IMG/VR virus record: IMGVR_UViG_2671180458_000006 | Length of the DNA: 8,718 nt | From: a virus | Taxonomy: Duplodnaviria; Heunggongvirae; Uroviricota; Caudoviricetes | Direction: 5' to 3' (one strand) | Part shown: positions 1 to 8,718 of the stretch, piece after piece | Layout of the letters: the number at the start of each line of letters is the position of its first letter | Position numbering within the stretch: the first letter of the stretch is position 1 | Position numbers and translations under genes: made by a program | The notes under the pieces: generated by a model | The model's input: only the letters and a program-made list of their open reading frames with translations | Told to the model about the DNA's origin: nothing | The model's database searches: none

Positions 1-1
1 T

Positions 2-805
2 TGCACCATGCTGGCGGGTAAGGCCAATACGGTATCGGCAAGCATGAAGGCGCTGGAAGATGCCAGGGAACGCGCGTTAGTGGTTGGCTTTTCGCTGATT
101 ATCATGCCGGATATGACCCGTTACGCTGGTGATGGCGCAGGAATTAAGGCCATTACAGGCGGTGACAAGGTGGCAATCGACCCGAAGCATAAAGCCCCCT
201 ACTCAACACGCATTCAGGCGGTAGTGTTGGCGGTGAACAATAACTCCATGTCATTCAGTGACCGCAGCGGGGGGATTTCACGTCGTCGGGTGATATTCAA
301 TTTTTCGGAGGTTGTACCGGAAAACGAACGCGACCCCATGCTGGCAGAAAAAATAGAAGGAGAGCTGGCGGTTGTGATTCGCCACCTGCTTACTCGTTTT
401 TCTGACCAGGACGAAGCTAAACGCCTGCTGTATGAGCAGCAGAAATCAGAAGAAGCTCTGGTGATAAAACGCGAGGGCGATTCGCTGGTGGACTTCTGCG
501 GCTATCTCATGTCGTCGGTAATGTGTGATGGTCTGTTAGTGGGTAATGCCGAAATTATTCCGTTCAGTCCGCGCAGGTATCTTTATCACGCCTATCTGGC
601 ATATATGAGGGCACACGGATTCGGTAAACCTGTAACACTGACGCGCTTCGGTAAAGATATGCCGGGGGCAATGGCGGAATATGGCAGGGAGTATATGAAA
701 CGGAAAACGAAGCACGGTTTGCGTTCAAATGTGACCCTGACAGAGGATTCAGAAGACTGGATGCCATCATGTGCATCGGTCACAAATGACGATGGAAAAA
801 ATTAA
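2..805 (+). CDS. P4 alpha-type (D5/SF3-like) primase-helicase, C-terminal portion; 5' end lies upstream of the window
   Basis: Frame is open from the window edge (first ATG at 8) to TAA at 803-805. The translation carries AITGGDKVAIDPKHKAPYSTRIQAVVLAVNNNS...GGISRRRVIFNF, which I recognise as the P4-family phage/plasmid primase C-terminal (helicase motif C) signature. It is immediately followed by TGTTCACC iterons, the octamer bound by P4 alpha. Family assignment is from recalled motifs. Confidence 0.75.
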   Translation, partial: CTMLAGKANTVSASMKALEDARERALVVGFSLIIMPDMTRYAGDGAGIKAITGGDKVAIDPKHKAPYSTRIQAVVLAVNNNSMSFSDRSGGISRRRVIFNFSEVVPENERDPMLAEKIEGELAVVIRHLLTRFSDQDEAKRLLYEQQKSEEALVIKREGDSLVDFCGYLMSSVMCDGLLVGNAEIIPFSPRRYLYHAYLAYMRAHGFGKPVTLTRFGKDMPGAMAEYGREYMKRKTKHGLRSNVTLTEDSEDWMPSCASVTNDDGKN

Positions 806-818
806 ACTTATGGAATAA

Positions 819-1048
819 CTGTTCACCACTGTTCACCCTGCAATAAATGTCTTTTATATCAGTATATTATAGGGTGAACAGTTATTTATGAACTGTTCAC
901 CAAACTATTCACTGTTCACCTTTTTGATTCTTTATTGAGCTTTAAGGGTGAACAGTGGTGAACAGTTGGTGAATAGTTTTTGTGAAACTGTTCACCCCTT
1001 AACATTATGAATAAAAAGGGAAAATTGCAAAAGGTGAACAGGTGAAGG
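819..1048. repeat. Iteron array, putative replication origin (P4 ori/crr-like type I iterons)
   Basis: Perfect TGTTCACC at 820-827, 830-837, 894-901, 913-920 and 989-996; the reverse complement GGTGAACA at 873-880, 947-954, 957-964 and 1033-1040; degenerate copies at about 905-912, 968-975 and 1041-1048. The array sits in an AT-rich segment directly downstream of the primase gene. Confidence 0.75.
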
Positions 1049-1092
1049 GTTGAAATGCAAAAATTTTATTTTATTGCTGTGAGGTAAAGCCT

Positions 1093-6096: not shown

Positions 6097-7604
6097 TGGC
6101 AATCCTTGATGATGTGATTGGCGTTTTTTCACCAGGATGGAAAGCGGCAAGGCTGCGTTCCCGTGCGGTGATCCAGGCTTATGAGGCCGTAAAAACGACG
6201 CGGACACACAAAGCCCGACGGGAGAACCGAACTGCCGACCAGTTAAGCCAGTACGGGGCCGTGTCGTTACGTGAGCAGGCCCGTTACCTTGATAACAACC
6301 ACGATCTGGTTATTGGTGTATTTGACAAGCTGGAAGAACGGGTGGTGGGGAAAAACGGGATTATTGTCGAGCCACATCCGGTATTACGCAATGGGGCCAT
6401 TGCCCGTGACCTGGCTGCGGAGATTCGCACCCGATGGAGTGAATGGTCTGTCAGCCCGGAAGTCACCGGGCAGTTTACCCGTCCGATGCTGGAACGTCTG
6501 ATGCTTCGTACCTGGCTGCGCGATGGTGAGGTGTTTGCCCAGATGGTTTCCGGGCGCATAAACAGCCTGGCGCCTTCTGCCGGTGTTCATTTCTGGCTGG
6601 AGGCGCTCGAGCCGGACTTTATTCCCATGACCAGTGATGAGAGCAACAGGCTGAATCAGGGCGTGTTTGTTGATGACTGGGGGCGTCCCGAAAAATATCT
6701 GGTGTATAAAAGCCGTCCCGTATCCGGACGGCAGATGGAAACCAAAGAAGTGGATGCAGAGCGAATGCTGCATCTTAAATTTGTTCGCCGTCTGCACCAG
6801 ATGCGCGGGACGTCTTTGTTGTCCGGTGTGCTGATCCGCCTCAGTGCCCTGAAAGAATATGAAGATTCTGAGCTGACTGCAGCAAGGATCGCCGCTGCTC
6901 TGGGGATGTACATCCGGAAAGGCGACGGGCAGAGCTATGAACCGGATGGTAATGGCAGAAAGGAGAATGAACGTGAGCTTACCATTCAGCCGGGCATTAT
7001 TTACGACGATCTGAAACCCGGCGAAGAAATCGGAATGGTGAAGTCGGATCGCCCCAATCCTAACCTTGAAACTTTTCGTAATGGTCAGTTGCGTGCCGTG
7101 GCGGCGGGCAGTCGTCTGAGTTTTTCCAGTACAGCGCGCAACTATAACGGCACTTACAGCGCCCAGCGTCAGGAGCTGGTTGAATCCACTGATGGCTACC
7201 TGATCCTGCAGGACTGGTTTATTGGTGCCGTCACCCGCCCGATGTATCGTGCATGGCTGAAACAGGCTGTGGCATCCGGTGTTATCAGGCTACCCCGCGA
7301 TCTTGACCGTTCTTCACTGTATACCGCGGTGTATTCCGGACCAGTGATGCCGTGGATTGACCCTGTTAAGGAGGCTGAGGCCTGGAAAATCCAGATTCGT
7401 GGTGGAGCGGCGACAGAATCAGACTGGGTACGTGCTGGTGGTCGTAATCCGGATGATGTCAAACGTCGGCGCAAGGCCGAAATTGATGAAAACCGCAATC
7501 TGGATCTGGTATTTGATACCGATCCGGCCAGTGATAAAGGAGGCAGTAGTGCCGCAACGAAACGACAGGAGCCGCAGCACACCGACGACCAGTCCGAAGA
7601 ATAA
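6096..7604 (+). CDS. Portal protein (lambda gpB-like family)
   Basis: 502-aa ORF starting at ATG 6096, overlapping the gpW-like stop (TGATG), with GAGG 5 nt upstream. Position after terminase and W, and size, fit a lambda-type portal. The track start at 6024 would overlap W by 72 nt and is less likely. Confidence 0.8.
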   Translation: MAILDDVIGVFSPGWKAARLRSRAVIQAYEAVKTTRTHKARRENRTADQLSQYGAVSLREQARYLDNNHDLVIGVFDKLEERVVGKNGIIVEPHPVLRNGAIARDLAAEIRTRWSEWSVSPEVTGQFTRPMLERLMLRTWLRDGEVFAQMVSGRINSLAPSAGVHFWLEALEPDFIPMTSDESNRLNQGVFVDDWGRPEKYLVYKSRPVSGRQMETKEVDAERMLHLKFVRRLHQMRGTSLLSGVLIRLSALKEYEDSELTAARIAAALGMYIRKGDGQSYEPDGNGRKENERELTIQPGIIYDDLKPGEEIGMVKSDRPNPNLETFRNGQLRAVAAGSRLSFSSTARNYNGTYSAQRQELVESTDGYLILQDWFIGAVTRPMYRAWLKQAVASGVIRLPRDLDRSSLYTAVYSGPVMPWIDPVKEAEAWKIQIRGGAATESDWVRAGGRNPDDVKRRRKAEIDENRNLDLVFDTDPASDKGGSSAATKRQEPQHTDDQSEE

Positions 7605-7617
7605 TTCCTGGTTCAGG

Positions 7618-8697
7618 ATGCAGGCTGGTCACCAGAGTGACGCGGATATTTATATTTATGACGAGATTGGTTTCTGGGGTGTTACAGCGAAGCAGTTTAT
7701 CAGTGATCTGAATGCACTGGGCGATATCACCCACATTAATCTCCATATTAATTCACCGGGTGGCGATGTCTTTGAAGGCATCGCCATTTTTAATGCGCTG
7801 AAAACACATGGTGCGTCCATTACCGTTTATGTCGACGGTGTGGCGGCGTCAATGGCGTCGGTCATTGCGATGGTAGGAAACCCGGTCATTATGCCGGAAA
7901 ACACCTTCATGATGATTCATAAACCATTTGGCTTTACGGGCGGTGATGCGGAGGACATGCGCACCTATGCCGACCTGCTCGATAGAGTTGAGGCGGTTCT
8001 GTTACCCGCTTATGCACAGAAAACCGGGAAAACCACCGATGAAATTGCTGCCATGCTGGCGGATGAGACCTGGATGTCCGGTGCCGAATGTCTGGCACAG
8101 GGATTTGCTGATCAGGTGACACCAGCCGTTAAGGCAATGGCATGTATTCAGTCAAAACGTACAGAGGAATTTAAAAAGATGCCGGAATCCATTCGAAATA
8201 TGATTACTCCGCCACGCAACAGTGCTCCACGCGTACAGGATGATGGACCTGCAGCCTCCCGGACGCCAGTGCAGGCAGCAGCACCCGTGGTGGATGAAAA
8301 CAGCATCCGTGCGCAGGTCCTGGCAGAGCAAAAAGCGCGTGTAAACGGTATTAATGATCTGTTTGCCATGTTTGGCGGGCGTTATCAGTCGTTGCAGGCT
8401 CAGTGTCTTGCCGATCCTGAATGTTCGCTGGAGCAGGCCCGCGAAAAGCTGTTGAACGAGATGGGGCGCGAGTCCACGCCATCCAATAAAAATACCCCGG
8501 CTCATATTTATGCCGGTAACGGTAATTTTGTGGGGGACGGGATCCGCCAGGCGCTGATGGCGCGCGCCGGGTTTGAAAAAACTGAACGTGATAATGTCTA
8601 CAACGGGATGACCCTGCGTGAATATGCCCGTATGTCACTGACTGAACGTGGTATTGGTGTTTCCAGTTATAACCCGATGCAGATGGTCGGTGTGTAG
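7618..8697 (+). CDS. Second ClpP-like prohead protease / scaffold / capsid fusion paralog, 3'-truncated (apparently by IS insertion)
   Basis: Starts at ATG 7618; the track start at 7357 overlaps the portal and precedes the homology. It aligns along its length with the N-terminal ~330 aa of the 2415-4304 protein at roughly 50% identity, with the same SPGGD, GVAASMAS and MMIHKP motifs and a ~40-aa insertion. Homology ends abruptly at ...SYNPMQMVGV, where the sequence becomes IS-end-like, and the TAG stop (8695-8697) lies inside the putative IS terminus. Confidence 0.8.
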   Translation: MQAGHQSDADIYIYDEIGFWGVTAKQFISDLNALGDITHINLHINSPGGDVFEGIAIFNALKTHGASITVYVDGVAASMASVIAMVGNPVIMPENTFMMIHKPFGFTGGDAEDMRTYADLLDRVEAVLLPAYAQKTGKTTDEIAAMLADETWMSGAECLAQGFADQVTPAVKAMACIQSKRTEEFKKMPESIRNMITPPRNSAPRVQDDGPAASRTPVQAAAPVVDENSIRAQVLAEQKARVNGINDLFAMFGGRYQSLQAQCLADPECSLEQAREKLLNEMGRESTPSNKNTPAHIYAGNGNFVGDGIRQALMARAGFEKTERDNVYNGMTLREYARMSLTERGIGVSSYNPMQMVGV

Positions 8698-8718
8698 TGG
8701 CACACTAAATTTGGCCAC
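8693..8718 (+). mobile_element. Left terminal inverted repeat of an IS3-family element (IS911-like), partial at window end
   Basis: TGTAGTGGCACACTAAATTTGGCCAC (8693-8718) matches my recollection of the IS911 left end TGAAGTGGCACACTGAATTTGGCCAC at 24 of 26 positions, including the terminal TG. It coincides with the point where the capsid paralog loses homology. Only 26 bp are visible and the match is from memory. Confidence 0.5.

Follow-up and report, generated by a model that had tools for sequence, protein, structure and literature searches.

Satellites that reside within the genome of their own helper phage were described by Tommasini et al. 2023 (NAR Genom Bioinform) as helper-embedded phage-inducible chromosomal islands (HE-PICIs), with Eco567.11capE (11capE) of E. 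coli NRG857c as the founder (PMC10111431). The catalogue comprises 491 elements at 14 sites, and all of their integrases, found at a 400-bit cutoff to the 11capE integrase, belong to one clade (PMC10111431). The catalogued elements carry a doubled attP motif, tgTGTATTGCantgTGTATTGCa, at -81 and +132, disrupt their target gene without a replacement sequence in attP, and share a four-zone order (integrase and helix-turn-helix (HTH) genes, Bro, replication, late); it has been proposed that helper late transcription reads into the embedded satellite, and excision of 11capE was shown experimentally, after the helper/satellite composite had excised and replicated (PMC10111431). Many HE-PICI helpers are truncated, in which case the satellites were proposed to await a new helper, and occasional off-target integration was also reported (PMC10111431). 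A second point of reference is EcCICFT073, prototype of the cos-type PICIs of E. coli (Fillol-Salom et al., 2018 ISME J, PMC6092414; 2019 Mol Cell, PMC6739421), which is known to have two cos sites as well as a capsid homologue (PMC6092414, PMC6739421). Here we compare with these systems an 8,718-nt stretch of viral DNA (IMG/VR record IMGVR_UViG_2671180458_000006; hereafter the window), which carries the right part of what appears to be a PICI-type satellite lodged in terL, the large terminase gene of a lambdoid prophage.

We estimate at roughly 85% the probability that positions 1-4777 of the window are the right 48% of a 9,920-bp PICI-type satellite, integrated site-specifically in the gpA-type terL of this prophage. 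All substantial open reading frames (ORFs) of the window lie on the + strand and form two blocks, 1-4777 (satellite) and 4775-8692 (helper). The satellite has the same orientation as the helper late operon, and the prophage that holds it is Qin-like, lambdoid and defective. Two draft contigs obtained by exact-protein look-up (L009 and L010), which match the window at 99.99% and reach 7.6 kb further left, gave access to the rest of the element; the locus in L010 measures 16.3 kb. Other loci compared include those of E. coli 2015C-3107 (97% identical to the window), an O121 carrier (L001) and E. coli JNEC-KY202 (L014), whose site is empty. Carriers were surveyed among 5,426 complete E. coli genomes, and IMG/VR contigs were examined separately.

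The right end of the element is at 4777, where comparison of attL, attR and the empty attB places the satellite right arm and attR (4685..4777, + strand), with the core TGGATG at 4772-4777. In the genome of the window, attL reads ...AGT TTC TGG ATG | TAG GGTAC... and attR reads ...CTTCTTCT TGGATG | GAAGGGCC..., the sequence common to both being TGGATG, and TTCTGGATG in the O121 version. The predicted attP junction is TTACTTCTTC(T)TGGATGTAGGGTAC, also written TTACTTCTTC[T]TGGATGTAGGGTACATTTC, and the predicted attB junction is AGTTTCTGGATGGAAGGGCC, also written AGTTTCTGGATGGAAGGGCCAGC. The crossover falls right after codon 330 of the 699-aa TerL, between its GpA_ATPase (40-303) and GpA_nuclease (325-643) domains. 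The C-terminal half of the gene (codons 330-699) occupies 4775..5887 (+ strand) in the window, with the gpA nuclease domain recognized by Pfam (GpA_nuclease, E=5.6e-84); the ATPase half lies 9.9 kb upstream, ahead of the satellite integrase.

An isogenic empty site was found in JNEC-KY202. This strain carries the same Qin-like prophage (neighbourhood hokD, rem, ydfU, ydfT, essD, rrrQ, cspI, gnsB ... tfaQ, pinQ, ydfK, ydfJ) with the same insertion sequence (IS) junction; its TerL is intact at the site, with 699 aa and the nuclease half contiguous with the ATPase half. Its left flank matches that of L010 at 99.96% and its right flank at 99.95%; 9 bp at the core are covered by both alignments, and what sets the loci apart is the 9,920-bp insert. 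Excision at TGGATG in silico yields a 699-aa ORF with 1 aa difference. Taken together, the isogenic empty site and the ORF restored in silico indicate that terL was split by site-specific insertion and not deleted. Occupied and empty prophages are only 2 substitutions apart in 6.4 kb, which points to recent integration or excision.

An earlier note on this DNA had placed the satellite next to a lambdoid head module disabled by an apparent terminase deletion and an IS insertion, and had proposed a possible recombination intermediate between satellite and helper. From the window one can see why: only the nuclease half of terL is present, an IS end lies at 8693, and the shared cos-like DNA and homologous ClpP/capsid genes could in principle recombine. 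This explanation is nevertheless hardly credible, since the ATPase half is found immediately upstream of the satellite integrase, the same short core marks the junctions in diverged terL alleles, there is no IS between 4304 and 4775, and the capsid genes are only 46-51% identical, which is not what a recent exchange would leave; the deletion itself is refuted by the empty site and by excision in silico. The head module is indeed lambdoid and disabled, but the satellite sits inside terL and is not merely adjacent to it, and the end of an IS3-family element, though real, lies in the helper capsid gene, with none between satellite and terL. In place of an intermediate there is site-specific integration at TGGATG in terL. 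The flanks, where the note had thought to look for an integrase and att sites, contain both, the integrase gene lying 162 nt after attL, and the cross-strain comparison it had suggested yielded the empty site of JNEC-KY202 and split terL genes in related genomes.

The element provides no replacement sequence for its target gene, so that terL is disrupted. At attL the reading frame continues TGG ATG TAG, with a stop directly after the core, and the N-terminal TerL fragment is 330 aa long; as the satellite arm supplies this stop, the helper can't make TerL while the satellite is integrated. We note that the ATG of the core (4775-4777) is the first codon of the terL 3' fragment, with no Shine-Dalgarno sequence evident upstream. 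In principle, the two parts of TerL could each be made as a polypeptide of its own in the integrated state. The same split is visible in the annotation of 2015C-3107, where terS (DUF1441) and terL 'missing C-terminus' are followed by genes for an integrase, an HTH protein, a Bro-N protein, an Icd-like protein and DUF4222, and then by primase, SSB, a ClpP/major capsid protein, terL 'missing N-terminus', portal, a ClpP/major capsid protein and tail genes; L006, L009, L010 and L011-L013 have this split-terL order as well. The terS/cos/terL-5' side (L010 660-920, 1454-2446) belongs to a different lambdoid lineage from that of the O121 carrier (L001 13062-14801), whereas the terL-3'/portal side of the window genome is 98% identical to it. 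JNEC-KY202 has the two lineages joined in this way in an uninterrupted gene, so that the mosaic structure around the attachment site is a property of terL itself.

The insertion recurs. The integrase was detected in 90 of the 5,426 complete genomes, nearly full length in 83, and the junction between satellite arm and terL at attR in 82. About 712 further genomes match the attR query only from window position 4767/4768 on, inside an intact annotated terL, and at least 1,164 complete E. coli genomes have a terL that runs uninterrupted across the site. The commensal or environmental strains represented by L011-L013 have integrases of 93-96% DNA identity, each in the terL of a different lambdoid prophage. 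In other carriers, for example E. coli 2A (NZ_CP146939), B1-56 (NZ_AP040249) or an O121:H19 isolate, the helper seems complete in the vicinity of the site. Among IMG/VR contigs, the left arm was found in 34 and was joined to the '...SRIASFWM' of terL in 33 of these, which differ in terL sequence (at least four variants of the peptide and nine of the DNA). The remaining contig (IMGVR_UViG_2737471855_000016; L128 1-1160) carries the arm at TTTTTGGATG, beside a LysR-like gene (family assigned by eye from the N-terminus); it was considered as an attP junction and rejected, being an off-target insertion. A scan of species-representative genomes with the integrase returned only relatives of at most 40% identity, but it is uninformative, as the single E. 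coli representative lacks the element.

In several respects the element resembles the HE-PICIs: it sits inside one of its helper's late genes (terL) on the same strand, disrupts that gene without replacing it, follows the same four-zone order and carries a homologue of a helper head gene. It shares with 11capE the order integrase, HTH, YlcI/YnfO, Icd-like protein, DUF4222, primase, 81-aa ORF, SSB and capsid gene, its helper is truncated, and the off-target insertion in L128 parallels the reported off-target events. The differences concern the integrase and its target. The integrase is 25% identical to that of 11capE and scores 86 bits against it, versus the 400-bit inclusion threshold of the catalogue; the TGTATTGC attP motif has 0 matches in the 16.3-kb locus of L010; and the target is codon 330 of a gpA-family TerL, while the catalogued terminase sites are only Terminase_1:132 and Terminase_1:246. 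Indeed, the att files of the catalogue (PMC10111431) contain no 'GpA' name and none of five substrings of the attL and attR arms. The element thus works like an HE-PICI, yet fails three of that family's defining features. The embedded-satellite architecture is already published; the novelty seems to lie in the target site, in the unrelated family of integrases and in the apparent general tropism of this family for late genes.

This apparent tropism emerged from a protein search, which gave a graded series of integrases in Enterobacterales, and from the genomic context of eleven relatives. A Salmonella integrase with 76% identity occupies the same gpA terL site (about codon 330), and another at 63% lies after the genes for portal and S78 protease. 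The 61% relative, in Lelliottia, cuts gpA terL at about 195 aa; at 59%, an E. coli integrase sits between lambda-like head and P2-like baseplate genes of a subtilase-toxin (SubAB) prophage; and the 52% relative from Raoultella lies in a PF09950 capsid gene (153 aa, profile positions 4-65 of 251). Two more E. coli integrases are located after DUF2213 in a Terminase_3/portal_3 head module (51%) and in a Terminase_1-like terL that ends at the Walker A motif (50%), followed by one from Enterobacter in a baseplate cluster (49%) and one from Pantoea after a portal_3-type portal (45%). An outgroup integrase from Pectobacterium (41%) is chromosomal, after yejM, and the Pantoea member is about equidistant from it. 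The ten subgroups sampled at 45-76% identity were all in co-oriented late-gene clusters, at about nine distinct positions; in the gpA, PF09950 and Terminase_1 cases the target gene was confirmed to be truncated, the basis elsewhere being position and orientation. The ten sampled relatives score 51-90 bits against the 11capE integrase. On balance we favour the view that these integrases form a second family, phylogenetically independent of the HE-PICI clade, which shares that clade's tropism for prophage morphogenesis genes.

Three observations on gene content and targets lie to the side of this question. The satellite with the 59% integrase (L119; E. coli SA53-3 NZ_CP076279, locus 14001-24800) carries capsid, decoration and terS genes. 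That with the 51% integrase (L120; E. coli EC2001 NZ_CP133811, locus 16000-28100) carries a second integrase-like gene and cargo annotated as baseplate, plug and spike proteins, which is unusual for a PICI. In the window, the helper ClpP gene has ATGATGATTCAT at 7909-7920, one base off the attB identity block ATGATGATCCAT of the C:CLP_protease:110 group of HE-PICIs, and the satellite's own ClpP gene is without a motif of the ATGATGATTCAT type; to judge from this near match, the helper head module may offer a target to a different embedded satellite.

As far as layout and gene content can tell, the element is a Gram-negative PICI. Its genes encode, in order, a tyrosine integrase, a small HTH protein (AlpA-like by position), a Bro-N protein, small ORFs, DUF4222 and a primase-helicase, followed by the putative iteron origin, SSB, cos a, a ClpP-protease/capsid fusion, cos b and a truncated late ORF. 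Its length of 9,920 bp compares with about 10-15 kb typical of PICIs, and the gene annotation of 2015C-3107, L009 and L010 shows no lysis or tail genes inside it. The integrase (412 aa; Arm-DNA-bind_3, Phage_int_SAM_3, Phage_int_M and Phage_integrase) reads inward from attL and is of the P4 type (Arm-DNA-bind_3). The HTH gene directly after it encodes 67-74 aa, with only 17.5 bits for HTH_17 (cutoff 27) and a match to phrog_66, 'excisionase and transcriptional regulator' (E=9e-7); one RefSeq record names this protein AlpA family.

The window itself begins in the replication zone. Positions 1..805 (+ strand; Pfam Pox_D5, DUF5906) encode the C-terminal 268 codons of the satellite primase/helicase, whose gene starts 1013 nt upstream of the window; the complete protein has 605 aa (L010 6574-8391; domains D5_N, DUF5906 and Pox_D5) and shares 82% identity with the primase of 11capE, the founder HE-PICI. 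Next comes a putative replication origin (819..1041, no strand assigned), proposed from a repeat count and AT-rich DNA. Here nine exact copies and one near copy of CTGTTCACC are clustered in both orientations, and GC falls to 41-42%; in the window as a whole, the repeat has 15 matches at up to one mismatch, versus 1.9 expected, a count reached in 0 of 200 shuffles. Mapped PICI origins likewise sit 3' of the primase gene (PMC10111431). An 81-aa conserved satellite protein (1093..1338, + strand; PHROG match, phrog_1231), kept upstream of ssb in all related satellites compared, and the satellite SSB (1335..1757, + strand; Pfam SSB E=4.9e-15, TIGR00621 above cutoff) complete this zone.

The late zone is dominated by a 629-aa fusion of ClpP-like prohead protease, scaffold and major capsid protein (2415..4304, + strand), recognized by Pfam and by NCBIfam NF045540 (890 bits, cutoff 475). 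Upstream of it is a small ORF (2191..2418, + strand; PHROG match, phrog_4934) whose end overlaps the capsid gene start; in L003-L010, gene callers place the start of this ORF at 2224 (64 aa). The fusion is 46-51% identical to its helper homologue and has a linker 35-45 aa shorter, which suggests an old paralogue and not a fresh capture. The assembly collection lists the exact 629-aa protein in 295 blocks, and the satellites that carry it have three unrelated integrases. The identical fusion, together with ssb and both cos sites (at least 98.9% DNA identity), is also present in chromosomal PICIs (L003/L005; L004/L007/L008), one type of which lies near mug/rpoD with a 475-aa integrase and a DUF927 primase, and the other between cspD and clpS. 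An identical capsid protein alongside unrelated integrases shows exchange of the late-zone module among satellites.

A complete protease-scaffold-capsid fusion could also suggest that the element is a capsid-forming PICI (cf-PICI) or a P4-like satellite instead of an ordinary PICI, and the P4-type integrase, as well as a match of the primase to a P4-family model (score below the model cutoff), goes in the same direction. We find this quite improbable: between attL and attR there are no terL, portal or head-tail connector genes, those of the window being the prophage's, and neither the called genes of L009 and L010 nor individually scanned ORFs include the Psu, Sid or Delta families; in layout and primase the element agrees with Gram-negative PICIs and 11capE. 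Both assignments were rejected because the hallmark genes are absent from the element. An Rfam scan for the P4-type immunity RNAs C4 and isrK gave no match in the window or L010, and a PADLOC scan found no defence genes among the small satellite ORFs.

Two cos copies in the same orientation, at a distance of 2.5 kb, flank the capsid gene. They were recognized by alignment with lambda and helper cos, and each comes after a terminator-like hairpin with a T-run: the hairpin at 1774-1789 precedes cos a (feature 1774..1875, + strand), and that at 4311-4326 precedes cos b (feature 4311..4545, + strand). In direct folding the former hairpin had strong support (-18.3 kcal/mol, z = -5.5) and the latter weak support (z = -2.6), and a consensus terminator scan missed both of these + strand hairpins 5' of the cos copies. 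The cosQ sequence GGGTCCT is found at 1798-1804 in cos a and 4335-4341 in cos b, and the cosN-like site, ACGGGGCGGG...CGCGG in both, at 1826-1849 and 4363-4385. The copies are 94.4% identical over 72 nt; beyond this, the cosB part of cos a is divergent or short, and cos b has a long cosB-like region of about 150 nt. Both copies align with lambda cosQ/cosN and with the region upstream of the helper-prophage terS.

Over ~200 nt, cos b is about 87% identical to the cos DNA of the O121 helper prophage upstream of terS, and its positions 4328-4529 match, at 86-87%, intergenic DNA upstream of terS in the Stx1 phage VT1-Sakai (AP000400 30865-31066; L097 1501-1702). The cos regions of several Stx2a- and Stx2d-converting phages match it equally well (86-87%), and these Stx phages are candidate trans-helpers in Shiga toxin-producing E. 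coli (STEC). By alignment, cos b does not match the cosB of the resident prophage. L011-L013 show the opposite pattern: there it is copy a that matches the resident helper cosB, and copy b, with its own cosB, stands beside the satellite terS.

The late zone after cos b occurs in three forms. L011-L013 have the satellite's own DUF1441 terS directly after cos b (L011 21273-22042) together with a 93-aa ORF; L001 and L003-L008 have only the 93-aa ORF; and the window, L006, L009 and L010 retain a 40-aa stump of it (L006 being listed in both of the latter groups). The stump lies at 4562..4684 (+ strand; phrog_1561) and was recognized by comparison with L001, relative to whose 24612-25087 the window is without about 444 bp of late zone (window 4612-4643); the window variant has no terS. 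For the 93-aa phrog_1561 protein, no relative could be detected in Pfam, PADLOC or the PDB, and a PDB sequence search for relatives of Rpp or TerS with the 93-aa ORF and the satellite terS returned chance-level matches only.

These features bring the element close to EcCICFT073 as well, with which it shares the layout of int, a putative AlpA gene, primase and origin, a capsid homologue, two cos sites with lambda-like cosQ and cosN, and, to judge from its genes, dependence on helper TerS and TerL. Two cos sites and a capsid homologue in one satellite are therefore not new. EcCICFT073 is integrated in the chromosome, whereas the satellite described here is in its helper; its cosB is unlike that of the helper and is read through Rpp, while cos b has a helper-type cosB and no Rpp-like sequence was detected here; and its capsid gene is lambda E-like, in contrast to the ClpP-protease/capsid fusion. 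The description of a P4/PICI-like back end (primase, ori, ssb, cos) with its own protease-capsid fusion, given in the earlier note, is borne out by Pfam and NCBIfam matches, iterons and cos alignments. The helper-type cos was correctly recognized, although there are two copies and not one, and the suggested variant of capsid-encoding, cos-bearing satellites corresponds to a known theme, represented by EcCICFT073, in a configuration published as HE-PICI (PMC10111431).

The helper block of the window continues after terL with a gpW-like head-tail adaptor (5878..6096, + strand; phrog_118 'head-tail adaptor', E=1.4e-37), a portal of the lambda gpB family (6096..7604, + strand; Pfam Phage_portal_2, E=8.5e-82; L010 13682-15190) and the N-terminal 381 codons of the helper ClpP-protease/major capsid fusion (7549..8692, + strand; Pfam CLP_protease), which is cut by an IS. 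The last 26 bases of the window (8693..8718, + strand) are foreign to the capsid gene and correspond to the left end of an IS3-family insertion sequence, assigned from the 8692/8693 junction shared with other genomes; an identical 49-nt IS junction is present in four complete E. coli genomes. In the satellite-free JNEC-KY202, the capsid fusion is annotated 'incomplete, missing C-terminus', and an IS3-family transposase at the junction is followed directly by a tail-fibre gene (L014 17023-18290). Since the IS abuts the tail-fibre gene there, the capsid C-terminus and the head-completion and tail genes (about a dozen) appear to have been lost.

The condition of the helper raises the question of whether the satellite is a dead relic, that is, an element that integrated site-specifically at one time but, in this genome and perhaps in most STEC carriers, no longer moves, has no satellite activity and is passed on by vertical inheritance. 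In its favour, an IS cuts the helper capsid gene, head and tail genes of the helper have been deleted, the satellite's last ORF is truncated, terS is lacking though relatives have one, an extra T lies beside the attR core, and the attP junction is in neither of two large collections. Moreover, among the matches listed, no uninterrupted terL exceeds ~88% identity to the reconstructed O121-type attB, and those of at least 99% appear to be split halves. Intact ORFs for integrase, primase, SSB and capsid fusion, a capsid protein identical across hundreds of assemblies, and the 2 substitutions in 6.4 kb between occupied and empty prophages speak against a relic, as does the proposal that HE-PICIs in truncated helpers await a new helper (PMC10111431). 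We regard a relic as a possibility to be taken seriously, though short of probable.

Several of these observations, and some others, also count against our interpretation of the locus as an embedded, mobilizable satellite. The extra T beside the core of the window attR (TTCTTGGATG vs TTCTGGATG) might impair excision. The attP junction had 0 matches in IMG/VR and metagenome contigs, so that no excised form was seen, and no packaged or deposited satellite was found in phage records, where only the cos segment and a distant primase matched. The small HTH protein is below the Pfam and NCBIfam thresholds for AlpA and has no NCBIfam match, and the resident helper is defective, with a cosB unlike that of the satellite. 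Finally, cis-activation by late read-through, the part that the fusion protein may play in the capsid and the functions of the two cos sites are what we infer. The copy in this genome looks stranded on account of the helper genes lost to the IS, the cosB mismatch, the truncated last ORF and the extra T at attR; the system here is probably stranded in a dead helper, and mobilisation of the window variant would need another helper, such as a prophage with an Stx-phage-type cos.

By analogy, the mechanism most likely follows the published HE-PICI model in four steps. Upon helper induction, late transcription would run from terS and the 5' half of terL into the satellite integrase and HTH genes; excision of the satellite would then rebuild an intact terL; the satellite would replicate from its own origin; and the helper terminase would package it through the helper-type cos, into capsids possibly influenced by the satellite's own protease-capsid protein.

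Regulated gene integrity, or active lysogeny, is familiar from the skin element in sigK and phi10403S in comK. There an integrative element interrupts a gene and its precise excision restores that gene at a defined time, as it would here; the gene interrupted in the present case is part of a different mobile element, the helper phage, and it is the satellite that presumably benefits.

A helper-embedded satellite is a cis-acting switch over its helper, which has no terminase until the satellite leaves. Because terL looks like a pseudogene and the prophages look defective, prophage-completeness calls and satellite finders will misjudge STEC genomes (O121, O157, O111, O145), and, given the likeness of the satellite cos to that of Stx-converting phages, the spread of Shiga-toxin phages might carry such satellites along or be disturbed by them. 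HE-PICIs have so far been described in one paper and tied there to a single integrase clade (PMC10111431). If an unrelated integrase family does target terL and other late genes, the strategy would have evolved more than once, the family would offer a comparative system for what makes an integrase target phage late genes, and helper-embedding would be a general strategy of satellites, arrived at by convergence and extending beyond lambdoid heads.

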